Origin: Promethearchaeota archaeon
GTDB taxonomy: Archaea; Asgardarchaeota; Lokiarchaeia; Sigyniarchaeales; Promethearchaeaceae
Length of the DNA stretch: 32,000 nucleotides
NCBI GenBank assembly: GCA_016933055.1
Contig: JAFGBS010000019.1
Span: forward strand, 1 to 32,000
Reading direction: 5' to 3'
Made by a program: the position numbers and the translations under genes. This document shows positions 806-30,436 of the stretch, in pieces (position 1 is the stretch's first letter; every line of letters begins with the position of its first letter). The notes under the pieces were generated by a model, which saw nothing but the letters and a program-made list of their open reading frames with translations, made no database searches and was not told the origin of the DNA.

Positions 806-3244
806 TTGTCTTCCGTATCTAAACACGCAAAAAAACTTGCCATAATTGCGCAAAAATCATATGATAGCTTAAAGCAATTCTATGCACAATTAGATCCCTA
901 TTTAGATAGGCATTCGAAAATCTGGAATATACCACCCATAAATCTTCTCGATACTTACATTCAGTTTTTTATTTATATTTGTTATAAAACTTACATTCGA
1001 TTTCAACAACCTCCTAATTTTGTCTTAATTCGAAAAACCACGAATAACTTAATTATTGATAACCATATTCCATCAGAAATTACCAATTCCCTCATCAGCC
1101 CCTTATTCGATGAAATTAGAGGGTGGGATCTTCCTGATAAGAGAGAAATCGACGCCTTCTTCACTTTTTATGGATCATTTCTAAGGAATTATAAGCCAAC
1201 TATCGCTAAAAATTCCGGAATAGTGTATACACCTAAAATTATTGTAGATTTTATGATAAAAGGAATTCAAAATCTGATTATTCACTTATTTAAGGTGGAA
1301 GATGGTCTTAAAAACAGAGAATTTCCTTTCAAAATAATAGATCCAGCATCAGGCACAATGAATTTCATCATTGCCCTTCTAAATTTCGTCAAAAACTCTA
1401 GTACAGACTTGGGAAAGATATACAGCAATATTTTAACTATGGAATTGAATTCCATCCCGTATCTACTAGGACTTGATGAACTAATGAATATAATTGAATT
1501 TCCCATTGAAAAACATAATTTTCATTTAGGTAATACGCTTACCAAAGAATCTTATAAAATATTCAATGATTTTCTGGAGCTAGGGCAAAAAAATTGTTTA
1601 TCTATCATAATGGGAAACCCCCCCTATTACATAAACACTCAAAATAACTATCCATGGATTCAATCGGAACTATCAGAATATAAACAGGATTTAGCGGAAA
1701 AAAATTTAAAGATTTTGTCGGATGATTATGTAAAATTTTTTCGAGTTTCCCAAAAATTATTTCAAGAGAAAAATAGGCAAGGCATTTTGACATATGTGTC
1801 TAATAATAATTTCTTGGATGGTACTGTGTTTAAATCTATGCGAAAGAGTCTTTTAGAGACATTTAATGCTATCTACATAGTAAATCTTCATGGTAATTTA
1901 CGAAAGAAGGAAACTGGTAACCCATTTAAGATAAAAATTGGCATATCCATCATTTTTCTCGTAAGAAATAAATCAATGTCTCCTCCCAAAACTGATTCCA
2001 ATTCTGAATCCAAGGACACTTCAAAAATTTATTACTTGGATTTAAATTCACCACAATTAAATACTAAATTCACCCAATTAGCAAAAAAATTTGATATGGA
2101 AAACTTTCAACGGGTAAACTTGACACCAGATTACTTTTTTATTCCAAGAGATATGAATAGAGAACAAAGGTTTCAAGAATTTACTGCATTACCTGATCTG
2201 TTTCAAAATTCTCCCAAAAGTGGCATCATGACTGGAAGAGATTCCTTAGTTTCAAATCCAGATGTGAAAATTTTAGAAGAAAACCTTCAGTTGTTCTTTC
2301 ACAGACAGTTTGACAAGTTGAAAATGCTAGATGTGAAAGTCAATAAAACAAAAACTTGGGATCCGGAGAAAGCACTCATATCGAGTTCCTTAGAGAGGGC
2401 TAAAAATTCTATAATTCAATATTATTATCGTGGATTTGTAAAGAGTTATTTAATCTATGAGAAGAATTTAGTAGATGGATGTCGTTTGGGCTATTTAGAT
2501 ACAATTTCCTCAACAAATCCGGCTATTTGCGTAACACGGTCCATTCGCAGTTCTCATTTCAGCCATGTCCTTATGGTAGATGCTCCTCCCGAAAAATGTC
2601 TACTAGGCATACGTGATTCATCTTATGTGTTTCTTCTCAAGACACCGCAGAATCTAAAAAAGTACAATTTATCGCCTCCCTCTCTCGGATTCAACTTTAA
2701 ATCAGAAATGCTCTTTTATTATATATATGGGATTCTGTACAGCTGTGCATATCGAGAACGTTACGTAGAACAGCTGAGAAGACATTTTCCACGTATTCCC
2801 TTTTTAAAAAATAATCCGATTATATTTGAAAAAATGGTCAATTTAGGGATGCACTTAGCAAATATTCATTTAGATAAGCTTGATTTAGACCTAAACGATT
2901 TTGTTATATACAATACATCAAATCGGAAAATTCAAGATTTCCACTACGAACGCAAATCTAATAGATTGTTTTTCGGTTCTCATAAAGATAATGTAGTGAT
3001 TGAGGGAATTACACCAGAAATTTGGGATTTTGAAATCGGATCTATTCGACAATTAGAATATTGGCTCAAGTCCAGAAAATACAAATCCCTCAATATACAG
3101 CATAATAAACGACACTTAGGATTACATCGCCCATTAGATGAATCAGAATTAAAAGAATTGTTGAAATTGTGTTCTAAAATTAAACTTACCTTGGGAATTC
3201 TCCCGAAAATTGATGCGATCTACAAAAAAATCGATGAGATATAG
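806..3244 (+). CDS. N6-adenine DNA methyltransferase with a type ISP-like C-terminal specificity domain; no nuclease or helicase domain
   Basis: Motifs: GIVYTP (X), IIDPASGTMNF (I), GNPPY (IV), LSDDYVKFFR, NNNFLDGTVFKSMRKSLLETF..IVNLHGNLRK, FYYIYGILYS..YRERY..FPRIP, IWDFEIG..LEYWLKSRK. These match type ISP/IIL MTase-TRD proteins. Confidence 0.85.
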   Translation: MSSVSKHAKKLAIIAQKSYDSLKQFYAQLDPYLDRHSKIWNIPPINLLDTYIQFFIYICYKTYIRFQQPPNFVLIRKTTNNLIIDNHIPSEITNSLISPLFDEIRGWDLPDKREIDAFFTFYGSFLRNYKPTIAKNSGIVYTPKIIVDFMIKGIQNLIIHLFKVEDGLKNREFPFKIIDPASGTMNFIIALLNFVKNSSTDLGKIYSNILTMELNSIPYLLGLDELMNIIEFPIEKHNFHLGNTLTKESYKIFNDFLELGQKNCLSIIMGNPPYYINTQNNYPWIQSELSEYKQDLAEKNLKILSDDYVKFFRVSQKLFQEKNRQGILTYVSNNNFLDGTVFKSMRKSLLETFNAIYIVNLHGNLRKKETGNPFKIKIGISIIFLVRNKSMSPPKTDSNSESKDTSKIYYLDLNSPQLNTKFTQLAKKFDMENFQRVNLTPDYFFIPRDMNREQRFQEFTALPDLFQNSPKSGIMTGRDSLVSNPDVKILEENLQLFFHRQFDKLKMLDVKVNKTKTWDPEKALISSSLERAKNSIIQYYYRGFVKSYLIYEKNLVDGCRLGYLDTISSTNPAICVTRSIRSSHFSHVLMVDAPPEKCLLGIRDSSYVFLLKTPQNLKKYNLSPPSLGFNFKSEMLFYYIYGILYSCAYRERYVEQLRRHFPRIPFLKNNPIIFEKMVNLGMHLANIHLDKLDLDLNDFVIYNTSNRKIQDFHYERKSNRLFFGSHKDNVVIEGITPEIWDFEIGSIRQLEYWLKSRKYKSLNIQHNKRHLGLHRPLDESELKELLKLCSKIKLTLGILPKIDAIYKKIDEI

Positions 3245-19259: not shown

Positions 19260-20906
19260 ATTTCATCAGAAGAAAAATTCCAAGAAATCTTAGTAACAAT
19301 TCGAGGTGGTACGATTAGAGGTGTTGTTTTTTCCAATTATGATGAATTTGGATACCAAAACTTGTATTCCTTCCCTCCTGCAGTTGAAAATCTTGACACA
19401 CATCTATCAATCCAAAGCTCTCTATTTAAGCAATGGCAATTAGAAAAAGACCAATTTTTCAAAAAGACATTTAATGGACCCGAAATACCCCCCATAAAAC
19501 GTTTTGGTGGATTAAGTGACATAATGTTATTCACTGAACGAGATTTTCTTCAGATAGCCGTGAAAAGTATCAGTTTACTCATTGGAGAAAGGGTTCTGGA
19601 TAAAGATCCTTCCCTTTTGAGGATGCAATTTTATGGGATATTACCCTACCCAGATTTTCAAGTTTATTCCTACACCTTCTTCCGGTTTTATTCAGTAATT
19701 GGAGAAAATATCCCGAGAGCATGCACATTTTCCCTCCTTATCGATAAGAATAAAAAGAACTTCATTTATGAACATCACAAATTTCTTCAGCAGTTGATTA
19801 ATGATACAGTAAATTCACTCGTCGTTCATTTGGAACAAGGAGAATGGACATCGGAAAACATCTCTAAAGCAATTGTCGAAAAGCTACATGGTACGATCTT
19901 CCACTTTTTTCGAAGTTTGTCAAATCTTAGTAAGACAGATCAATTTATAGCACCTCTTACATCTTATAGGACTAAAAAAATCGTATTCACAGGGCTGAAA
20001 CACAGTGAAATTAACAGATTTCTAATTTCTCTCAAACAATGCTCTGCTAAAAAACAAAGATCAGATATAGAAACAGAGATCCCTATTACTCGTCTTTTTG
20101 AGACAACAGTTTTACGATGGGACAGTAACGAAGATGGGGAAAGTTACTTGGACAATATTGATCTCCTCTACTATTTCGTGGATGGAACAGATGTATATAA
20201 GATAGAAGAAGATCAAATCTTTTATAGCAAGATTATCGAACACCTCGGCAAGAAGGAAATTAGGATTCCTATTTTAGTAATTATATCCAAAAATGGTGAA
20301 GATATAATAGATTCCCTCGCCTCACACCAAACTATCTTACGGATAAAAGAACAATTTCAAAGCTTCACATCGAAACATGAGTATCAAGTACGATTTTTCG
20401 AGACTGATAAATTCTCCCCATCTGCATGTTTATCAGTTTTTTCGGAAGGATTATCCTTGCTAATGGGCACCCAAAATGACATAACTCCTATTCTAACAAG
20501 ATTTTCTGATAAGTGGAATGTACCTGCATTATTTTTATATAATCAAACCGGCTTAGCCTTCTCTAAATATATCTCAAAGAACTTGAGCATGAACTATCCC
20601 TCTCCCCAAGGCATCGAATTAACTGGCACTAACCTCGTTTCAATCTTTGATATCAGTAAACCATTGGGTCATAAATCCCCTAATTCTGAAATTTCTGTAG
20701 AGATGGGAAAAAATTACAGCGCAATTTTGAAAAAAATCAATTGGTTTATTCCTTTTTATATTCTTGCTTTCACTTCCCGTTCTACATCAGAATTTGATAT
20801 TGCCAATCTTAATGTATTGGGCATGGAACTGATTGATCTATTTGGGAATAAATCAAATATAAGTTTTCCATATAAAGATCATGGTAAAAAAACCGAAGTT
20901 TGGTAA
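19260..20906 (+). CDS. Multidomain protein: longin/uDENN-like N-terminus, degenerate Arf/Rag-like GTPase domain, roadblock/longin-like C-terminus; start uncertain
   Basis: The frame is open from 19254, 36 codons before the TTG at 19362, and encodes ISSEEKFQEIL..IRGVVFSNYDEFG. The middle has KIVFTGLKHSEIN / LLYYFVDGTD / IPILVIISK. The C-terminus has ALFLYNQTGLAFS. The domain calls are pattern-based. Confidence 0.55.
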   Translation: MSSEEKFQEILVTIRGGTIRGVVFSNYDEFGYQNLYSFPPAVENLDTHLSIQSSLFKQWQLEKDQFFKKTFNGPEIPPIKRFGGLSDIMLFTERDFLQIAVKSISLLIGERVLDKDPSLLRMQFYGILPYPDFQVYSYTFFRFYSVIGENIPRACTFSLLIDKNKKNFIYEHHKFLQQLINDTVNSLVVHLEQGEWTSENISKAIVEKLHGTIFHFFRSLSNLSKTDQFIAPLTSYRTKKIVFTGLKHSEINRFLISLKQCSAKKQRSDIETEIPITRLFETTVLRWDSNEDGESYLDNIDLLYYFVDGTDVYKIEEDQIFYSKIIEHLGKKEIRIPILVIISKNGEDIIDSLASHQTILRIKEQFQSFTSKHEYQVRFFETDKFSPSACLSVFSEGLSLLMGTQNDITPILTRFSDKWNVPALFLYNQTGLAFSKYISKNLSMNYPSPQGIELTGTNLVSIFDISKPLGHKSPNSEISVEMGKNYSAILKKINWFIPFYILAFTSRSTSEFDIANLNVLGMELIDLFGNKSNISFPYKDHGKKTEVW

Positions 20907-21930
20907 CTATGTGGTTGCATTAGGGGAATTGATGTTACGTCTAAAATCACCCTTAACCCAGCGCTTTTTACAAAATTCCCTCTTTGAAGCAACATTTGGC
21001 GGTGCTGAAGCGAATTTTCTTGCTTCACTTTCAAATTATAATGTTCCAACCCGTTATATTACGTGTTTACCAGATAACGATATCGCTAAGAATGCATTGA
21101 GATTTTTGCACTCTCTGAATATTGATACGTCTTGCATTTCCTTTTCAGAAGGAAGAATGGGTCTTTATTATTTAGAACAAGGATCAGGTCCCCGACCTTC
21201 ACAGGTCATTTATGATCGAGCCTATTCGAGCATTTCTCAGTCAAAAATTAACCAATTTCAATGGGATGCTGTATTTGCTGATTCATCGTGGTTCCATACT
21301 ACCGGAATTACCGCTGCGTTGTCACAAAATACGGCCGATCTATGTGAATATGCCATGAAAGAAGCAACGAAAAGAAATATGAAAATCTCCTGTGATTTAA
21401 ACTATCGGAAAAATTTATGGAACTATGGCAAAACTCCAAAGCAAATTATGAAAAAATTACTCTCTTACGTGAATGTTGTAATTGCGAATGAAGAAGATAT
21501 ACAAAATACATTAGAACTGGATAGGTATGATGAATCAGAGAAAATTAGTGCACATAAATACCAACGACTAGCTGAAAATGTTGTGGATGAATTTCCGAAC
21601 ATTGAAGTAGTCGCGATTACCCTACGAGAAAGTTTCTCGGCAGATTATAATGAATGGGCAGCACTTTGTTATGTTTCAGATCATAAGAAAGTGTATATAT
21701 CACAAAAATACCAATTAAAGAACATTATAGACCGAGTAGGTGCTGGAGATGCGTTCGGTGCTGGTTTTATCTATGGATTGCTGATGGAAAAGACGTATCA
21801 AGAAGCATTAGAGTTTGGAGTTGCTGCAAGCGCATTGAAACATACTATTCCAGGGGATATTAACCGTGTAACAGCACAAGAGGTAGAAAATCTCATTGGT
21901 GGCACAGGATCTGGAAGAGTGGTAAGATAA
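20881..21930 (+). CDS. kdgK: 2-dehydro-3-deoxygluconokinase-like PfkB sugar kinase
   Basis: Motifs: ALGELMLRL, FGGAEAN, GRMGLYYLEQG..RPSQVIYDRA, WFHTTGIT, SCDLNYRKNLW, IANEED, DRVGAGDAFGAG, LKHTIPGDIN. An alternative GTG start lies at 20911. Confidence 0.85.
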   Translation: MVKKPKFGNYVVALGELMLRLKSPLTQRFLQNSLFEATFGGAEANFLASLSNYNVPTRYITCLPDNDIAKNALRFLHSLNIDTSCISFSEGRMGLYYLEQGSGPRPSQVIYDRAYSSISQSKINQFQWDAVFADSSWFHTTGITAALSQNTADLCEYAMKEATKRNMKISCDLNYRKNLWNYGKTPKQIMKKLLSYVNVVIANEEDIQNTLELDRYDESEKISAHKYQRLAENVVDEFPNIEVVAITLRESFSADYNEWAALCYVSDHKKVYISQKYQLKNIIDRVGAGDAFGAGFIYGLLMEKTYQEALEFGVAASALKHTIPGDINRVTAQEVENLIGGTGSGRVVR

Positions 21931-21931
21931 A

Positions 21932-22711
21932 ATGGGGAAAACAAAAAAAATAGCTTTAATTACCGGTTCCATTCGAGGAATTGGAAAAGCAATAGCAAAA
22001 GAGATGCACTCCCTTGGCTATTCTCTCATAATCAATGGGGTTTCCCAACATTCTTTACCCGAATCATATTTAGATGAGTTTTCGGGATCAAAAGAAACTA
22101 TCCACTATATTCAAGCAGATATATCCATTGTCGAGGATAGACAAAAATTAGTGGAAAAAATCATCCAGCTTAACCGAATTGACTTATTAGTAAATAATGC
22201 TGGTGTTGCTCCTAAGGAACGTAATGATATATTAGTAGCTACGGAAACCAGTTTTGACCGAGTTATGAACACAAACTTGAAAGGTCCATATTTTTTAACC
22301 CAACAAGTAGCCCAACTCATGATTCAGTTCAAAAACAATCACTTAATTGACTATAATCCAAAAATAATCAATATTGGTTCAAATTCTGCCTACACATCCT
22401 CACCCAATCGAGGAGAATACTGTCTATCCAAGGCAGGAATGGCAATGATGACTAAATTATACGCCGATAGACTTTCAGAATTTAACATTCCTGTTTTTGA
22501 AGTTCGTCCGGGTATTATAAAGACTGACATGACAAAATCTGTCGAAAAGAAATATGATACTCTATTTAAAGAGGGAATAACTCCTTTTTCGAGGTGGGGT
22601 ACACCCATAGATGTAGCAAAATGTGTCAGTGCAATCGTTCAAGGGTACTTTCCCTATAGTACAGGTCAAGTCTTTAATGTAGATGGAGGGTTCCACCTAA
22701 AGCGATTGTAG
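21932..22711 (+). CDS. SDR-family oxidoreductase (PRK12745-like)
   Basis: Motifs: ITGSIRGIG, LVNNAGVAP..R.DIL, NLKGPYFLTQ, catalytic YCLSK, EVRPGII.TDMT, RWGTP.DV, FPYSTGQVFNVDGG. Confidence 0.9.
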   Translation: MGKTKKIALITGSIRGIGKAIAKEMHSLGYSLIINGVSQHSLPESYLDEFSGSKETIHYIQADISIVEDRQKLVEKIIQLNRIDLLVNNAGVAPKERNDILVATETSFDRVMNTNLKGPYFLTQQVAQLMIQFKNNHLIDYNPKIINIGSNSAYTSSPNRGEYCLSKAGMAMMTKLYADRLSEFNIPVFEVRPGIIKTDMTKSVEKKYDTLFKEGITPFSRWGTPIDVAKCVSAIVQGYFPYSTGQVFNVDGGFHLKRL

Positions 22712-22720
22712 GGATTAAAA

Positions 22721-24721
22721 ATGATCTTGGATGGACATACTCTTTATCGCATTAATACTTTAGTTATAGGTTCAGGCACAGCAGGTATGAATGTAGCTAT
22801 ACATTTTGTAGAAGAAGGTGGATCTTCTGATGATATCCTAATCGCTACTGAACTGCTTGGGGGTGGAACCTCATTTAATGCAGGATCAGATAAGCAAACC
22901 TATTACAAACTTTCTTTGGCAGGCAATCAGTCTGATAATATTTACAAAATGGCAGAAACTTATTGGAATGGCGGTTCCATGCATGGAGATATTGCCTTAA
23001 TTGAATCTGCAAATTCAGTACGGGAATTCATGCATCTTGTCTCATTGGGGGTACCGTTTCCTACTAACAAGTATGGTGAGTATGTTGGATACAAAACCGA
23101 TAACGATCCATTACAAAGAGCGACATCGGCAGGACCCCTAACTTCAAAATTAATGGCCGAAGCATTACTAAAAAGAGTAACACAATTAGGAATTCAAATT
23201 TGCAATGAAGTATATTGCTGTAAGATTTTTGATTTAGGTTTGCAAAAACTCGTTATTGGCTTTCAAATTGATGATCTTTTTCAAGATATCTCTAAAAACT
23301 TTATGAAAATCGTTAATCGGAACTTAGTTCTATTTATTGTGGATAACCTTATAGTTGCTACGGGAGGTACTAGTTGTATCTATAGACATTCGGTTTATCC
23401 AAAGAGTCAGTGGGGGAGTTTAGGTGTATTGATCGATTACGGTTGTGAAACTCAAAATCTCACTGAATCTCAGTTCGGGATCGCTTCTACAAAAGTTCGT
23501 TGGAACCTTAGTGGTACCTATCAACAAGTTCTTCCAACTTATCGCTCATATGGGGAGAAGGAAACGATTAGGGATGCTGTAGAATTCCTAAATCCATGTT
23601 TTCAAACTAAATCCCATCTTCTTAATGCTATTTTTCTGAAAGGTTATCAATGGCCGTTTAATGTGGAACGGATAAGTGACTATGGTTCCTCTCTAATTGA
23701 TCTCTTAATTTTTAAAGAAATTACACAGAAAGGACGAAAAGTAGTATTAGATTATACTACGAATCCGTGCAATCTATCCATTAACCAAATTTTGGAATTA
23801 CTTGACGAGGAATACGCGAATTATCTACTGAAATCGAAGATTACTGCAGATCCTTTATATTCTACTCCCATTAGTAGACTTCGGAAAATTAATCCTAAGG
23901 CTTATGATTTATACTTGTCTCGGGGGATCGATCTGGAGCGGGAACAATTGGATATCTCAGTCTGTGCCCAACACAGCAATGGAGGAATCTCGGGTGATAT
24001 TTGGTGGGAATCTTCCAGACCAAGAGTTTTTGTAATTGGAGAAGCAAATGGAAGCCATGGAATTCATCGGCCAGGCGGTGCTGCACTTAATTCTGGTCAA
24101 GTAGGAGGTTTAAGGGCAGCTTTGAAAATTCTGCATGAGTATTATCCCCAACAAAAACAGGAAAAATTTGAATTGGACTCTCAGCATATCTTGGAATTGG
24201 TTAATGGGTACTGTAATTTGATAGCTGAAATAATTCACCATAAATCCAACAAGATTTACCCTTCTCATGTACTTGAAATCATACAGAACCGTATGGCGAA
24301 ATATGGATTTATACTTCGAACAGATTCGAATTTGAAAACGGAAGTTGGAAAAATAGATCATGAAATTCGCACCTATTTTTCAAGGTTATCACTTCAGAAT
24401 CCAACGTGGGGAGAATTTATATATTCTATACGAGTGTATGATGCGTTAATCACCCATGCTGCATATTTACATAGTATTCTTACCTACATTGCTGAAAAAG
24501 GGGGAAGCAGAGGTAGCTATATTATTGACCAATCAGGAAACCGCATTCCACATAATCCAACGCTTGATGAATACATTGTGAAAATCCGGTGGAATTTGGA
24601 AGAAAATTCTAGAAATTTTTCTTCGTTTTTAGAAAAGCGAAAAAATATTCCTCAAGATGAAGATTGGTTTGAAACTGCTTGGCACGTATTTGATTCCGGC
24701 GCAGTATTTAAAGAAGAATGA
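22721..24721 (+). CDS. FAD-binding oxidoreductase of the SdhA/FrdA/NadB superfamily, uncharacterised subfamily
   Basis: Motifs: VIGSGTAG, ATGG, QHSNGG, FVIGEANGSHGIHRPGGAALNSGQVGG, GGSRGS; subfamily-type GSDKQTYYKL and GYKTDND..QRATSAGPLTSK. Confidence 0.8.
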   Translation: MILDGHTLYRINTLVIGSGTAGMNVAIHFVEEGGSSDDILIATELLGGGTSFNAGSDKQTYYKLSLAGNQSDNIYKMAETYWNGGSMHGDIALIESANSVREFMHLVSLGVPFPTNKYGEYVGYKTDNDPLQRATSAGPLTSKLMAEALLKRVTQLGIQICNEVYCCKIFDLGLQKLVIGFQIDDLFQDISKNFMKIVNRNLVLFIVDNLIVATGGTSCIYRHSVYPKSQWGSLGVLIDYGCETQNLTESQFGIASTKVRWNLSGTYQQVLPTYRSYGEKETIRDAVEFLNPCFQTKSHLLNAIFLKGYQWPFNVERISDYGSSLIDLLIFKEITQKGRKVVLDYTTNPCNLSINQILELLDEEYANYLLKSKITADPLYSTPISRLRKINPKAYDLYLSRGIDLEREQLDISVCAQHSNGGISGDIWWESSRPRVFVIGEANGSHGIHRPGGAALNSGQVGGLRAALKILHEYYPQQKQEKFELDSQHILELVNGYCNLIAEIIHHKSNKIYPSHVLEIIQNRMAKYGFILRTDSNLKTEVGKIDHEIRTYFSRLSLQNPTWGEFIYSIRVYDALITHAAYLHSILTYIAEKGGSRGSYIIDQSGNRIPHNPTLDEYIVKIRWNLEENSRNFSSFLEKRKNIPQDEDWFETAWHVFDSGAVFKEE

Positions 24722-24779
24722 TATATTGAATATACAAAACCACATAGGAGAAAAACTCTAATATATACGTAAGTGAAGG

Positions 24780-25364
24780 GTGATGATGAAGAGCGATCCA
24801 AATATGCTTAAACTTTGCGTTATGGGAGAAGGAGGGGTAGGAAAAACCACTCTGGCGAACCGTATATTAACGGGAGTATTCAATCCGGCGACAAAGATGA
24901 CCATAGGCATAGATTTCCACTTATTTCAAATGCAAATCTTGGATCCACGTACCTCTGATGAAAATTTGCTCCCAATTTCTCTCGCGATTTGGGATTTTGG
25001 TGGCGAGGATAGATTTCGATTCATGTTACCTCGATTTGTGAAGGGAGCGAACGGGGGTCTTTTACTATTTGACCTGACCAGATATAGTACAACAAAATAT
25101 TTGAAGGAATGGTTGAACATTTGGAATGAAAATGCAGAACCCCATACTCCATTGTTTTTAGTTGCTTCCAAACATGACAAAATTAATCCCACGTCTCAAA
25201 ATATGATAGAAGTACAGATAAACGAATTGAAGAAATCTCTAAACATCCAAAAACATTTTCTAATCAGTTCTAAAAGTGGATTTATGGTGGATACTTTAAT
25301 TGATTCAATTGCGAAAGATATGTGGCTATTCAAAAATAATATCAAAATATCGCTAACAGAATAA
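24780..25364 (+). CDS. Rab-like small GTPase
   Basis: G1 GEGGVGKTT, G2 MTIGIDF, G3 WDFGGEDRF, GANGGLLLFDLTR, G4 ASKHD, G5 ISSK. No C-terminal Cys. Confidence 0.9.
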   Translation: MMMKSDPNMLKLCVMGEGGVGKTTLANRILTGVFNPATKMTIGIDFHLFQMQILDPRTSDENLLPISLAIWDFGGEDRFRFMLPRFVKGANGGLLLFDLTRYSTTKYLKEWLNIWNENAEPHTPLFLVASKHDKINPTSQNMIEVQINELKKSLNIQKHFLISSKSGFMVDTLIDSIAKDMWLFKNNIKISLTE

Positions 25365-25371
25365 ATTTATC

Positions 25372-27009
25372 TTGTTTTTACGCTTAGTACAAATTACAAG
25401 CAAGTTGCAGATGGTTTCAATGGGAAAAGAATTAACACAAGAAGAGAAAGAAATTACCAAGCGTCAAAAATTAATCGAGGGCTGGGATCAACTCGCATTA
25501 AAAAATAGCACTGTATTTATTGCAGGTGTTGGAGCACTTGGATGTGAAATTGCAAAAGACTTAGCCCTTTGTGGTGTTGGAAAACTGATTTTATGCGATT
25601 TGGATACAATTGAAACCTCAAATCTATCTAGACAAATGTTGTTTTATAAAGGAGATGAGGGTCGACCTAAGGCAGAAGTTGCAGCTGAAAGAGTAAAAAG
25701 AATGAACCCTTTTATAGAAATTCAATATTATTTTAAACCAATCCAAGAACTTCCCATGGAATTGTATAAATCTTGTGACCTCATCATAGCAGCCTTAGAT
25801 AACTTTAAAGCTCGTATTGATCTTAACAAAATCTGTTTGGATCTGAAGATACCAATGATCGATGGTGGTACACTTGGAATGGAAGGTCATGTTCAAGTAA
25901 TCATTCCCGAAGGAACTGTGGACAGTTCTGGAAATCTTCTGGAATATGGGAATCAATCCCGAATGATTGACACTCTCACTCAAAATAAATTATGGGAACT
26001 GGAAGAGTCGAAATATCCGGGCTATTTCGCTGCGATGCGACAAATAGAAGAATTGGAAGAAAAAATAGAACGATTAACTAGTGTGTTTATAGAACCTGTA
26101 GTAGAAAAAATTCGTACACAGACTGCCAAGGAACTTCAGTCCCATTCTAACAATAATTATACTCCTTGTTATCGGTGTGCTGTCCCGGTACCCCCTCCAA
26201 TGGGCAAAATGGCTGCTGCTTGCACCCTTAAAGGTATACCACGGAATAGAATACAATGTGCATTACGAGCTGAAGTGTTATATCATAATCGAGAAGATAA
26301 AGATGTTGATTTCTCGAAAATGGAAGAAGTACAAAAACTGACCCAAATCGCTCAGAAGGAATTGGACTCACTTCGAACCCGTGTATTAAGTGAAGGAATT
26401 AGTCCTGAAGAACAATCTCTCATTAGTACAGAGGAAATGGAAGAACGGAAAAAAAATATTAAAATTACCTTTGGACCAGATTTCTCTCCGGAAGATATGG
26501 AAAATATTCTACAAAATAAAATGCCTGCGATTCAAACAGTAAGCTCTGTGATTGCATCAATTGAATCTCAAGAGGCTCTAAAAATTTTATTTCGGATGAA
26601 AGGCATTGATGTGGGGGAGATTATGGATCCTCCCTATGTGAATTACAATGGGGTTTTTGGTCAATTTGATGCCATTCCCTTATCCCGCCGCGATGATTGT
26701 GTAGCATGCGGAAAAATCGTAGGTGTGGAAAATTTAAGCCTCTTAGTACCTAAAGATGCTACATTTGACACTTTATTTGAATTGATCAAATCTCAGAAAT
26801 ATAACATGAATCCGGATAAATGGTCCATAAGCAACCCAATTACGAAAGCCTATGTTTATCTACCGGGAAATCCCAAATCACCCGGGTTAAAGGATGAAGT
26901 CGCACAAAGTGGCATTGAATCCGGAACTTTTTATACATTTTCCACAGCACCTGCTAATGCAATCGATGGAATCCATACATTCAACATACGAATTGAATTT
27001 GCTGAATAA
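25372..27009 (+). CDS. Ubiquitin-like protein activating enzyme E1, Uba3/Uba2-like, with catalytic Cys domain and C-terminal ubiquitin-fold domain
   Basis: GVGALGCE, DLDTIETSNLSRQMLF, two Zn-binding CxxC motifs (CYRC, CVAC), AACTLKGIPRNRIQC (compare Uba3 PMCTIASMPRLPEHC), MPAIQTVSSVIAS. The real start may be the ATG at 25411 or 25420. Confidence 0.85.
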   Translation: MFLRLVQITSKLQMVSMGKELTQEEKEITKRQKLIEGWDQLALKNSTVFIAGVGALGCEIAKDLALCGVGKLILCDLDTIETSNLSRQMLFYKGDEGRPKAEVAAERVKRMNPFIEIQYYFKPIQELPMELYKSCDLIIAALDNFKARIDLNKICLDLKIPMIDGGTLGMEGHVQVIIPEGTVDSSGNLLEYGNQSRMIDTLTQNKLWELEESKYPGYFAAMRQIEELEEKIERLTSVFIEPVVEKIRTQTAKELQSHSNNNYTPCYRCAVPVPPPMGKMAAACTLKGIPRNRIQCALRAEVLYHNREDKDVDFSKMEEVQKLTQIAQKELDSLRTRVLSEGISPEEQSLISTEEMEERKKNIKITFGPDFSPEDMENILQNKMPAIQTVSSVIASIESQEALKILFRMKGIDVGEIMDPPYVNYNGVFGQFDAIPLSRRDDCVACGKIVGVENLSLLVPKDATFDTLFELIKSQKYNMNPDKWSISNPITKAYVYLPGNPKSPGLKDEVAQSGIESGTFYTFSTAPANAIDGIHTFNIRIEFAE

Positions 27010-27011
27010 CG

Positions 27012-27620
27012 ATGGTAAATTTTGAGGATATTGTAGACAAGTTGCGTTGTAAGCGTCTGTTCATTTTTGATTTCGATGAAACCTTAATTAATTTGAATGT
27101 TGATTGGGAGCAATTAAAGAAAGAACTCTCAAAATTGGTTAAGGAAAGATTTGGAATTACTATGAATTTTACTCCCATTATGGAAAAATTAGAGTACTTG
27201 AAAAATCAGATCACCGAGGAGGAGTATTCCTCCATTATGAATCAACTCAAACAAGGAGAGATAAATGCATTACAAACAAAATCCACTATCCAACCGGTAG
27301 GTCTTGAATTACTAAAAGAAATTCATTCAAATTTGATCCAAAAGTCACAAGAATCCAGATATATTACAATCCTTTCGAATAATTATACAGATACTATTCG
27401 GATGGGTGCTAAAAAATATGGGATTGATAGATTTATAGCATCGTATGTAGGGCGTGATATGGTAACGAAAATAAAACCTGAGATCGAAGGAATAGAAAAA
27501 ATACATAAGCAATTCCCAGATGTAAAGAAATCAGAAATTGTGTATTTTGGGGATAGTGAAAAATATGATAAAATGGTTGCACTGGCATATGGCGTAGACT
27601 TTTTTTTAATTAAAAGTTGA
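27012..27620 (+). CDS. HAD-superfamily hydrolase (phosphatase)
   Basis: Motif I IFDFDETL, motif II ILSNN, KIKP, motif IV YFGDSEKYD. Confidence 0.85.
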   Translation: MVNFEDIVDKLRCKRLFIFDFDETLINLNVDWEQLKKELSKLVKERFGITMNFTPIMEKLEYLKNQITEEEYSSIMNQLKQGEINALQTKSTIQPVGLELLKEIHSNLIQKSQESRYITILSNNYTDTIRMGAKKYGIDRFIASYVGRDMVTKIKPEIEGIEKIHKQFPDVKKSEIVYFGDSEKYDKMVALAYGVDFFLIKS

Positions 27621-27691
27621 TGGAAAATCCATTTTTTTATAAGTCCCAATAAATAAATTTCAGTAACTACTAAAGTACAACGATAAATCGC

Positions 27692-28366
27692 ATGACAGAT
27701 AAGAACGAAAAAAAGAAAAAGAAGAAGAGAAGATCGCGAAAATCAGACAATCCCGATGAATTTGATGAGAAAGATGTGATCGATGACGATGACGATGACG
27801 ATCCGATGAAATATTTCCAAAAAATGATGGATAGCTTGGGCAAGAGAATGGGTGTTGATTTTTCAAAAGTAGTACGGGATTTAATGAAACAATTCTACCC
27901 CGATATGGAAGATATGGATGAGGAAGAATTACAAAAGTTTATGAAAGAAAACCTTGCTCGAATGGGAGCTAAACCTGTGGTATTTGGATTTAATATGACT
28001 CCTGGTAAGGATGGATTTCCAAAATTTGAGCGTTTTGGAAATGTAGAACCCAAACCTTACGGTGAAACGGTTGTCAAGGACGAAAGAGAACCCTTAGTAG
28101 ATATTATGGAAGAGGAAAATGAAGTTATTGTAGTAGCAGAGATTCCTGGATGTGCTAAGGAAAATATTGAATTAAAGGCTACGGATTCGTCATTAACTAT
28201 TATTGCATGTGATGAAGAAGATGTGAGAAAATATAATACTACAGTAGATCTCCCCTCTAGCATCAATCCCGATCATGCTCGCGCGCGATATCGAAATGGA
28301 ATTTTAGAAGTTAAATTAGAGAAAGTTCAAGGGAAACATAAAGGGAAAAAAATCTCTGTGGATTGA
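27692..28366 (+). CDS. hsp20: Archaeal small heat shock protein Hsp20 with a charged N-terminal extension
   Basis: Motifs: PVVFGFNM..G.P.FERFGN, REPLVDIMEE..VIVVAEIPG..KENIEL, LPSSINPD.ARARYRNGILEVKL. Confidence 0.9.
   Translation: MTDKNEKKKKKKRRSRKSDNPDEFDEKDVIDDDDDDDPMKYFQKMMDSLGKRMGVDFSKVVRDLMKQFYPDMEDMDEEELQKFMKENLARMGAKPVVFGFNMTPGKDGFPKFERFGNVEPKPYGETVVKDEREPLVDIMEEENEVIVVAEIPGCAKENIELKATDSSLTIIACDEEDVRKYNTTVDLPSSINPDHARARYRNGILEVKLEKVQGKHKGKKISVD
27782..27802 (+). repeat. In-frame (GATGAC)3GAT microsatellite encoding D7
   Basis: Read directly from the sequence. Confidence 0.8.
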
Positions 28367-28615
28367 ACAATATTTTATTTTTCTATTTTATTATGAAGAT
28401 TTCTCGGTCAATACTAATCCTATGATATTAAAAATAAGAAGAAAGAAATAACGACAAGAAAATCTACGAAATTTAGATCAATAACATCCCCACATTATAC
28501 TTATACTACCTACTTTTATTTTAGAAAGATCATAGTTGTAGATAATCTTAAAGGTCACAAATTTCTATTATCTTTTTGTAAAGACTGTAAAGAGTGAAAA
28601 TAAGACTGATTTGTC

Positions 28616-30436
28616 ATGTCATACGAGAACATTTCAGAGGAAGAGAAAGAACTCTACCTCGAGGTTTTAAGGGAAGGAACCACCCCCTTTGATAGATTTG
28701 TAAGTCGTGGAGATATAGAAGACGTAATAGACATCCCTCGAAGCCGTCAAACTATCGATCGGAACGTTTTCCGAGCTGTGCAGCAGACCCAATTGGATCA
28801 ATCAACACGATTAATTCCCATTCTCGGAGCTGCGGGTACGGGTAAAACACACGCCTATTGGGCTTATAAGGATCGAGAGCGCAAAATGCTCATAACTGAT
28901 GATACCGCGGAAGAACTTGTTTATGAAGGACCTAGTGGATGGACGATTGTGTATGTTCCAAGCCCACCTGCGTCGATTCGTATTTTATTACATGTTTATT
29001 CCTGCATAATTGATGAAATGGGTGCAGATATTCTCAAGATCGTATCCGGTAAATTAGTAAAGAAGTGGGGCGGTAAAAAGAAAAAGCATTTAGGATTATT
29101 TGGTTCAGCAGACATTGAAGAAGTGATTCAGGCTGGCATACGAAACTATCCGGGAGTGTTCGCGGATTGCGTGAAAGCCTTAGTTATTTACGAAATGGAT
29201 AAAGACAGAAAAGTGCTTGCTGAACGTTGGCTACTCGGAGAGGATTTAGATGAAGAAGAATTGGACATCCTTGGTATTAACTCGGTTATTGAAGAAGATG
29301 ATATTTGTCTTGCAATGATCAAACTCCTAACTGAACATACTGATAAAACAATTGTTTTATATTTAGATGAGTTGGAATCCCCATACCGAATGCATGGTCC
29401 CGATGCTGAACGAAAATTTTTGGAAATAATCAAACGGTTATATAATGAAGTCAAAAATCTGGTTATAATTATCGCCGTATTGAAAGAAATCTGGCCACGT
29501 ATTTTAGAAATTGCAGATATGCCCTTGCGATCGCGAATGGAACCAGAACATGAACTTCAAAACTGGACCCATGATGATCTTAAACTATATTTTGCTAAAT
29601 CTATGCTCCATTTCTGGAATCAGAATAATCTCAATCCACCAACATATCCATTATTTCCTCTAAATGACCAAGTATTGAATTCGATTTACCATAAAACTGA
29701 TGGAAATCAGAGGTCTATCATTAAACTCATACGGATATTTGTAGATAAAATTATTTCTGGTGAGATGACCCTTGAAGAACTCATGAAAGACGAATCCATT
29801 GTACCTGTTGCCAAACCGGAGTTGTTTAAAAGCGAAATTGATGAAGAAATCAAGAAACTCGCAGCAGAAGCGAAAAGCCAGGGTTCAACCAAAGAATCTC
29901 TAGCAGAAGCAATTGAAAAAATGATGCAGGAGGAAGATTTTATAATTGAGGTAAATCAACCTTCCGTTGCAGCTGCGGCATTGAAATGCATTAAAATAAT
30001 AGGAGATAAAAACAAATACGATTATAATGTGGATTTGGAATTTAAATTCCCATTAGGTCGTCGTAAAGTAACTCTCGCAGGTTTAGTAACCTATAATAAT
30101 CGTAGAATAGCACTTGAAGTACCTGCTGTAAAAGATTTTGATCGATCAGGGGGAGTTGCTGCATTTTATGCTGCTCAACGCATTCAAAACGCAATTATGC
30201 AAAACCAAATTGATGAAGCCATACTTATCGTTCCCGAAAACACCAAGGGTCAAAAATATCAATCGATTTTAAGTCAATATTCTCAAATTAACATAATCGA
30301 GCTAGATAATGAAGACGGTGAAACATTATTACGAGGAGCTGGAGCAGGAAAACCTTCAGTAGAGGGTTATGAAATTGCACAAATAATATTTCCAGAATTA
30401 CCAGATTACACACCTGAAGAAGAATCGGCTGAGTAA
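28616..30436 (+). CDS. P-loop/AAA+ ATPase, BrxD/DUF2791-like, with an extra C-terminal alpha/beta domain
   Basis: Walker A GAAGTGKT (28826), 'ERWLLGEDL', Walker B VLYLDELES, sensor/lid region LRSRME. The family assignment is by resemblance only. Confidence 0.6.
   Translation: MSYENISEEEKELYLEVLREGTTPFDRFVSRGDIEDVIDIPRSRQTIDRNVFRAVQQTQLDQSTRLIPILGAAGTGKTHAYWAYKDRERKMLITDDTAEELVYEGPSGWTIVYVPSPPASIRILLHVYSCIIDEMGADILKIVSGKLVKKWGGKKKKHLGLFGSADIEEVIQAGIRNYPGVFADCVKALVIYEMDKDRKVLAERWLLGEDLDEEELDILGINSVIEEDDICLAMIKLLTEHTDKTIVLYLDELESPYRMHGPDAERKFLEIIKRLYNEVKNLVIIIAVLKEIWPRILEIADMPLRSRMEPEHELQNWTHDDLKLYFAKSMLHFWNQNNLNPPTYPLFPLNDQVLNSIYHKTDGNQRSIIKLIRIFVDKIISGEMTLEELMKDESIVPVAKPELFKSEIDEEIKKLAAEAKSQGSTKESLAEAIEKMMQEEDFIIEVNQPSVAAAALKCIKIIGDKNKYDYNVDLEFKFPLGRRKVTLAGLVTYNNRRIALEVPAVKDFDRSGGVAAFYAAQRIQNAIMQNQIDEAILIVPENTKGQKYQSILSQYSQINIIELDNEDGETLLRGAGAGKPSVEGYEIAQIIFPELPDYTPEEESAE

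Follow-up and report, generated by a model that had tools for sequence, protein, structure and literature searches.

The window analysed here, 32,000 nucleotides of contig JAFGBS010000019.1 from the Promethearchaeota archaeon assembly GCA_016933055.1 (positions 1 to 32,000), carries three genes that lie head to tail on the forward strand: a Rab-like small GTPase (24780-25364), a eukaryote-type ubiquitin-activating enzyme, or E1, that we call E1-545 (25411-27009), and a phosphatase of the HAD superfamily (27012-27620). We consider it probable, at roughly 60%, that this enzyme is the activating component of a second pathway for ubiquitin-like conjugation, confined to a single order of Lokiarchaeia, with the HAD phosphatase as an old companion and the GTPase as an addition made in one family of that order. 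Discussions of ubiquitin in Asgard archaea usually treat a single operon. The evidence presented below points instead to two parallel sets, within one order, of E1, conjugating enzyme (E2) and ubiquitin-like protein (Ubl). The second set is dispersed yet extremely conserved, with identities across families of about 80% for the Ubl and about 72% for the E2. It resembles an early instance of the orthogonal Ubl pathways – ubiquitin, NEDD8 and SUMO – that are a defining trait of eukaryotes.

The genome under study (G000) comprises 3.76 Mb in 36 contigs, of which three others, labelled C16, C17 and C22, matter most to the argument. Families within the order are labelled f1 to f4. Coordinates without a contig label are those of the window, and all features placed there are on its forward strand.

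The E1 and its partner genes

Read from ATG 25411, E1-545 is 532 amino acids (aa) long; the alternative starts are TTG 25372 and ATG 25420. Because its orthologues begin near MGKxLT in an alignment of 22 sequences, ATG 25411 or 25420 is the likelier start. The ThiF domain (PF00899, 2.7e-59 in Pfam) is split by an insertion of approximately 190 aa. Sequence matches in the PDB are to Uba1, Uba6, Uba7, SAE2 and UBA3, and the best Foldseek matches of the AlphaFold 2 (AF2) model, which has a predicted local distance difference test (pLDDT) score of 74, are UBA3 and SAE2 over the full length (2e-25 to 1e-22; best structures 2nvu_B, 3gzn_B and 9if6). Several segments are invariant among the 22 orthologues: the ATP-binding GVGALG (G39-G44, 25525-25542) and its extension to GVGALGCE, the DLDxIExSNLSRQ motif, the CxxC pairs CYRC (C253 and C256, 26167-26178) and CVAC (C430 and C433, 26698-26709), and the putative catalytic Cys271 (26221-26223) in AACTLKGIPR. 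The two CxxC pairs form the zinc site expected of a canonical E1. The AF2 loop around Cys271 is of low confidence, and the catalytic-cysteine segment, AACTLKGxPR, is recognised at the sequence level alone. Between the GHVQVIIP segment and TPCYRC lies a helical, coiled-coil-like insertion (25909-26160; AF2 helices 182-195 and 203-242) that is found in every orthologue across the order. Residues from about 439 to 532 (26725-27006) are modelled as a ubiquitin-fold-like domain of mixed strands and one helix (pLDDT 73-92), and the full-length Foldseek alignments to UBA3 and SAE2 span this domain.

E1-545 resembles UBA3, the E1 subunit for NEDD8, and SAE2/UBA2, that for SUMO, in its ThiF domain, its CxxC...CxxC zinc site, its CT..(G)xPR cysteine segment and its putative C-terminal ubiquitin-fold domain, at a structural-alignment identity of about 20%. 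Unlike them, it carries two additional inserts, one helical and about 85 aa long ahead of the first CxxC and the other in the cysteine region, and it is a single chain: no SAE1- or APPBP1-like partner gene was recognised in G000, and a homodimer is possible. Judged by its motifs and its predicted structure, E1-545 appears to be a complete eukaryote-type E1. We set aside an assignment as a defence E1 of the CBASS Cap2 or Bil type; the PADLOC E1-E2 models cover residues 11-166 alone, which is the generic ThiF part.

The window holds no ubiquitin, E2, RING or JAMM gene, as the first-pass annotation had remarked in comparing it with the described archaeal ubiquitin operons. A Pfam scan of window ORFs of at least 100 aa gave no match to the Ub, E2, RING or JAB families, and no match from genome-wide searches with the ubiquitin and UQ_con families fell on the window's contig. 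The impression of an E1 short of partners, however, did not survive the search for Ubl and E2 genes that the same annotation had recommended, and that search located one of each that look cognate. Contig C17 carries a solo Ubl of 84 aa ending in GG-N (Ubl-84, C17:520649-520900), and C22 carries a solo E2 of 169 aa (E2-169, C22:160044-160550). In addition, a full canonical operon is present on C16, encoding a ubiquitin of 123 aa, an E1 of 415 aa, an E2 of 175 aa and a JAB protease of 266 aa; its E1 and E1-545 both carry AACTxxGIPR. The correction matters, since the premise of a partnerless E1 would steer readers to exotic substrates.

E1-545, E2-169 and Ubl-84 have one common phyletic range. 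The E1 gene is single-copy and highly conserved order-wide. Among 151 genomes sampled from the phylum, 27 have it, every one in f1 or f3; in the order, approximately 58 of the 61 genomes have it when partial and fused forms are included; and 123 genomes sampled from 27 other families gave no match at E<=1e-55. Orthologues of E2-169 with 67-74% identity are present in 26 of 28 sampled f1 and f3 genomes, and matches in other families have at most 47% identity. Ubl-84 occurs in 53 of the 61 order genomes (72-93% identity) and in none of the 123 sampled genomes outside the order.

The same genes are also linked in pairs. In f2 and f3, E1 and E2 fell within one 20-kb stretch in all ten loci examined, usually with the E1 facing a HAD gene and the E2 gene on the other strand (E1-> <-HAD <-E2). 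On contig C630 of genome G002 (L141:366-3218, plus strand), genes for a Ubl-84 orthologue, for a protein of 379 aa that ends in a ubiquitin domain and for an E2-169 orthologue share one strand, and in one f4 genome the Ubl lies 1.4 kb from a fused E1. Because of the common phyletic range and these pairwise linkages, we read E1-545 as the activator in a second Ubl pathway that is specific to the order and for which no RING or JAB partner was identified. As located in G000, its genes are scattered on three contigs, apart from the Ub-E1-E2-JAB operon of C16.

The archaeal Ub-E1-E2-(RING)-JAMM operon is known from Candidatus Caldiarchaeum subterraneum, whose system has been reconstituted (PMC5654768), and Asgard equivalents have been described (PMC9192718). 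The E1-545 pathway draws on the same enzyme classes, and the C16 operon is the copy that G000 itself has of the described system. In contrast to that system, the E1-545 pathway forms no operon, its Ubl, E1 and E2 genes being on three contigs; it occurs in one order only; and its E1 is accompanied by a HAD gene and, within a single family, by a GTPase gene as well. A literature search on Asgard archaea with E1, Ubl and GTPase terms, of incomplete coverage, returned no description of a second system, of a GTPase or HAD link, or of a conserved HAD position beside an E1/E2 pair.

Two leads from the surroundings of Ubl-84 were considered and rejected. In G000 (C17:520649-523739; L091:3647-5739, minus strand), Ubl-84 is clustered on one strand with AsnC-type ligand-binding, V4R-domain and thioredoxin-like proteins and with a Ras-like GTPase of 197 aa. 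This context is kept only within the genus, and so it lends no support to a general GTPase link. In genome G041 Ubl-84 is followed after 47 bp by a MoeB/ThiF-like gene of 288 aa (L128:5320-6186, minus strand). No other genome among the 61 searched has this gene, and it cannot be the general E1 for Ubl-84.

Some E1 and E2 genes of the order have unusual forms or surroundings. The f4 E1 is a single chain of 732-985 aa (L134:1613-4555, minus strand, in G016; also in G018, G020 and G022) in which a UBA3-like half, whose aa 558-944 align end to end with UBA3 37-419, comes after an inactive ThiF domain resembling SAE1/Aos1 (aa 270-447); by this alignment it has the layout of a Uba1-like pseudo-heterodimer in an archaeon. 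E1 genes of genus g11 (L036 and L037; also G017 and G019) are interrupted within the ATP motif by some 36 nt that keep the frame but contain two stop codons (GVGAL|SLL*LITYT*|GCE); the insert looks like a mini-intron. Directly upstream of the E1 in f3 are giant MIT/TPR-repeat proteins of 843-2552 aa (L067:2814-9179, plus strand; L068:10833-13364, minus strand; L073:2976-7901, plus strand; and others), with an S8 subtilase between the two genes in some genera; the MIT domains suggest a link to ESCRT-III. The E2 frame of G021 (L070:11496-12002, minus strand) and those of other f3 orthologues have no ATG, GTG or TTG at the conserved N-terminus (…V*KIREETDY), which is consistent with a non-canonical ATT or ATA start. 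The G002 cluster of Ubl and E2 genes also holds a calcineurin-like metallophosphoesterase, a phosphoesterase beside the E2 that belongs to a superfamily other than HAD.

The HAD phosphatase and the GTPase beside the E1

The three ORFs and their gaps are as first described. The GTPase stop codon (TAA, 25362-25364) is followed by 7 bp if the E1 starts at TTG 25372 and by 46 bp if it starts at ATG 25411, to which ATG 25420 adds a third value of 55 bp; the E1 stop codon (TAA, 27007-27009) is separated by 2 bp from the HAD start at ATG 27012. The triplet is embedded in an array of nine same-strand genes (19362-30436) whose gaps upstream of it, at 1, 9 and 58 bp, are comparably short, and gap length alone therefore does not set it apart. 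The 58-bp gap before the GTPase gene contains a TATA-like TAATATATA (24759-24767) that may be the unit's promoter. A T7 tract (27632-27638) that resembles an archaeal terminator lies 12 nt past the HAD stop. The positions of the two elements are compatible with a single transcription unit for the triplet. The proposal of an operon holds to the extent that the GTPase, E1 and HAD genes are a real operon-like unit, which is kept in the sister genome of the genus. The complete arrangement is genus-specific, and conservation beyond the genus concerns its parts: the GTPase stays with the E1 within f1, and the HAD is associated with it order-wide.

The HAD protein is a HAD-IA phosphatase of 202 aa with a C1 helical cap (Pfam HAD_2, 6.6e-16; AF2 pLDDT 93). 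Motif I, DFDET (nucleophile D20, with D22 and T24; 27069-27083), motif III K155 and motif IV, GDSEKYD (G180, D181 and D186; 27549-27569), are invariant among 16 orthologues, and motif II S122 is nearly so (at least 90%). The cap follows motif I as four helices in the AF2 model (residues 32-109), and Foldseek matches are to phosphoglycolate-phosphatase-like and beta-phosphoglucomutase (beta-PGM)-like HADs, that is, to HAD-IA enzymes. The protein thus shares the four motifs and the four-helix cap with C1-capped phosphatases such as phosphoglycolate phosphatase, PpaX and the beta-PGM-like enzymes; it differs from the named families in matching no equivalog. The best named family, PpaX, has an NCBIfam equivalog cut-off of 218 bits, which neither the window HAD (38.6 bits) nor an f3 orthologue (71 bits) reaches.

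The window HAD and the E1-adjacent HAD of f2 and f3 are reciprocal best matches. In f3 the HAD gene is co-directional with E2 and convergent to E1, and in the genus under study it comes 2 bp after a co-directional E1. Two closed f1 genomes have the orthologue on the E2 strand, at 11 and 18 kb from E2, and their E1 more than 1 Mb off. Because the orthologous HAD sits between E1 and E2 in f2 and f3, the association of E1 with HAD is order-wide, and the HAD is, on this gene-order evidence, a long-standing neighbour of the E1/E2 pathway.

The GTPase is a Ras/Rab-like protein of 194 aa from a GTG start (alternatives ATG 24783, 24786 and 24804; Pfam Roc 8.3e-24, Ras 8.5e-23), with best PDB sequence matches to Ypt6, Rab27B and Ypt7 (2.5e-21 and weaker). 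The P-loop (G1, GEGGVGKT, 24825-24848) and the switch I Thr (G2, TIGIDF) of the Rab family are both present. Like Rab and Ypt proteins, including a Thorarchaeota Rab (7ezb), it has the Ras-superfamily fold with motifs G1-G5 in order. Unlike them, it has Glu76 (25005-25007) in place of the catalytic Gln in its G3 motif (DFGGE, 24993-25007), SKHD for NKxD in G4 (25167-25178), an extra loop before beta-3 and no prenylation Cys. The two motif substitutions had been singled out in the first-pass annotation. Both are present, though they are subfamily-wide features: WDxxGE is kept throughout the subfamily, paralogues unlinked to E1 included, and (S/T/A)KxD, in which Lys and Asp are kept and Asn is replaced, is general in these Asgard GTPases. 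The C-terminal tail (...NNIKISLTE) lacks a Cys prenylation motif, and the tails of orthologues are variable and likewise without Cys. The GTPase does not have a Gly-Gly tail, and we rejected it as a substrate of the E1 by way of its own C-terminus.

In most f1 genomes the gene that best matches the window GTPase is on the E1 contig, and in 9 of 13, representing five of seven genera, the orthologue precedes the E1 and is read in the same direction. The distance is 46-55 bp in G000, 57 bp in G001, 154 bp in G007 and 274 bp in G008, so that the two genes are tightly adjacent (46-274 bp) in three genera; it is 0.6 kb in G010, 1.8 kb in G005, 2.5 kb in G009, 3.9 kb in G006 and 7 kb in G011. In G004 the two genes are at matching contig ends. 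The E1-linked GTPases form one clade in a maximum-likelihood tree (support 91/89), with the genus's own paralogues as sister; paralogous GTPases of G000 are at C35:36247-36795 and C36:16419-16967. Of the remaining window genes, the 20-kb stretches around the E1 in other genera show only weak restriction-enzyme-like matches (26-35% identity). With the surroundings reshuffled and the GTPase still beside the E1, the pair has therefore stayed together while its neighbourhood changed. These neighbourhoods indicate an E1–GTPase association that is family-wide, in f1, and an E1–HAD association that is order-wide.

Other Ras-like genes near the E1 were not counted as the same link. In f3 and in genus g4, such genes at a distance of 4-9 kb are members of different orthogroups. 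One f3 gene, for a Ras-like GTPase of 175 aa (L068:15689-16219, plus strand, and orthologues), varies little between genera (87-100% identity) and is found 5-34 kb away from the E1. It has orthologues in f1 (68-72% identity; G000:C22:51273-51776), and in two closed genomes of that family the distance to the E1 is 51-58 kb. We read its position as long-range synteny rather than as a sign of coupling.

Proposed pathway and rival explanations

From the gene content, motifs, folds, orthology, phyletic ranges and neighbourhoods established above, we infer which enzyme activates what, which genes are co-transcribed and what the HAD and the GTPase may do. The terminal Asn of Ubl-84 would be removed, and the ThiF domain of E1-545 would adenylate the exposed C-terminal Gly. 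Ubl-84 would then be taken as a thioester on Cys271 (AACTLKG) and handed to E2-169 docked on the C-terminal ubiquitin-fold domain. The HAD gene looks co-transcribed with E2 in f2 and f3 and with E1 in the genus under study; its product would most likely hydrolyse a small-molecule phosphate ester or phosphoanhydride serving the pathway, removal of pyrophosphate or of the nucleotide product being one candidate activity. Our hypothesis is that it removes a phosphorylated small-molecule product of the pathway. The Rab-like GTPase would have joined upstream of the E1 in the f1 ancestor, and in the genus under study it is probably co-transcribed with E1 and HAD. The two neighbours, one conserved and one family-specific, are testable candidates for accessory factors.

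A number of observations weigh against this reading. The pairing of E1-545 with Ubl-84 draws on their matching distribution and on one clear neighbourhood in f4, and the 415-aa operon E1 could activate Ubl-84 too. The HAD has the fold of an ordinary small-molecule phosphatase, and its score falls far under the cut-off of its best named family. The GTPase orthogroup and its E1 linkage are confined to f1 and absent from f2, f3 and f4; even within f1 the two genes are unlinked in G003, no orthologue of the GTPase was found in G002, and 1-5 unrelated genes split the pair in five genomes, with opposite-strand genes among them in G010 and G011. Finally, the order keeps some long-range synteny, so that the HAD and GTPase linkages could in part reflect nothing more than an inherited arrangement of genes.

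Taken to its end, this last point yields an explanation in which the neighbourhood has no functional meaning, being inherited gene order and accidental co-transcription in a compact same-strand array. The similarly short gaps among the nine genes, the restriction of the exact triplet to the genus, the persistent synteny and the generic phosphatase fold all suit it, but it does not account well for a HAD that stays by E1 or E2 through changes of orientation and partner, nor for a GTPase that is, the weak restriction-enzyme-like matches aside, the sole window gene to stay with the E1 in other genera. We regard it as unlikely, if the least so of the alternatives. The opposite proposal, which had been raised in the first-pass annotation, makes the GTPase a dedicated switch, as regulator or as substrate: it would bind the E1 according to its nucleotide state and in this way gate Ubl activation, or else serve as the principal conjugation target. 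Its upstream, same-strand linkage in five of seven f1 genera despite near-complete reshuffling around the pair, and the tight adjacency in three of them, argue for such a switch. Against it stand the difference in range between the order-wide E1, E2 and Ubl and the f1-only GTPase, the interruptions and the loss of linkage just described, and the occurrence of the motif oddities in unlinked paralogues. Moreover, G000 has about 44 Ras-family genes, and no E1–GTPase fusion was found: the 101 E1 relatives of 932-2660 aa are all Uba1-type, a few of them with an E2 domain, and none has a GTPase domain, although this negative is weak evidence because only 8000 candidates were scored. The linkage has thus stood, within f1; the switch itself we consider improbable, by a shade more than mere inherited order, and functional coupling of GTPase and E1 in any form is doubtful to a similar degree. 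The most specific version, in which f1 has a dedicated Rab-like GTPase wired to Ubl-84, E1-545 and E2-169 as a nucleotide-dependent E1 regulator or prime target, with the HAD as a third, order-wide component, is unlikelier still. If true, it would be a prokaryotic precedent for crosstalk between GTPases and ubiquitin, and it is testable in f1 genomes, closed ones among them.

The E1-like protein might, alternatively, act in sulfur transfer or in a metabolite pathway as an adenylyltransferase of MoeB/ThiF type, with the HAD removing phosphate. NCBIfam ThiF and MoeB models do match its Rossmann part, and the HAD is of small-molecule type, but every such match is far under its cut-off and covers residues 6-169 only. 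E1-545 has, besides, the Cys segment, two CxxC pairs, a tail like a ubiquitin-fold domain and full-length alignment to UBA3 and SAE2; its conserved neighbour in f2 and f3 is a UBC-fold E2 with HPN and catalytic Cys; and a distinct MoeB-like protein of 251 aa is encoded on C17. We consider this explanation very improbable, and retain the second Ubl pathway as the best account of the locus.

Other genes at the locus

An HSP20 gene (27692-28366) lies 3' of the HAD gene, and its product has an acidic, Lys-rich N-terminal extension. Its orthologue is found directly after the E1 in G002 and after the HAD in G001. At the other end of the window, 21 kb from the E1-linked GTPase, is a gene for a Type ISP-like N6-methyltransferase (806-3244). 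Homologues with 26-35% identity adjoin the E1-linked GTPase in G005, G009, G010, G011 and G006 (loci L055-L059 and L061), and in G007 a homologue is located approximately 7 kb upstream of it.

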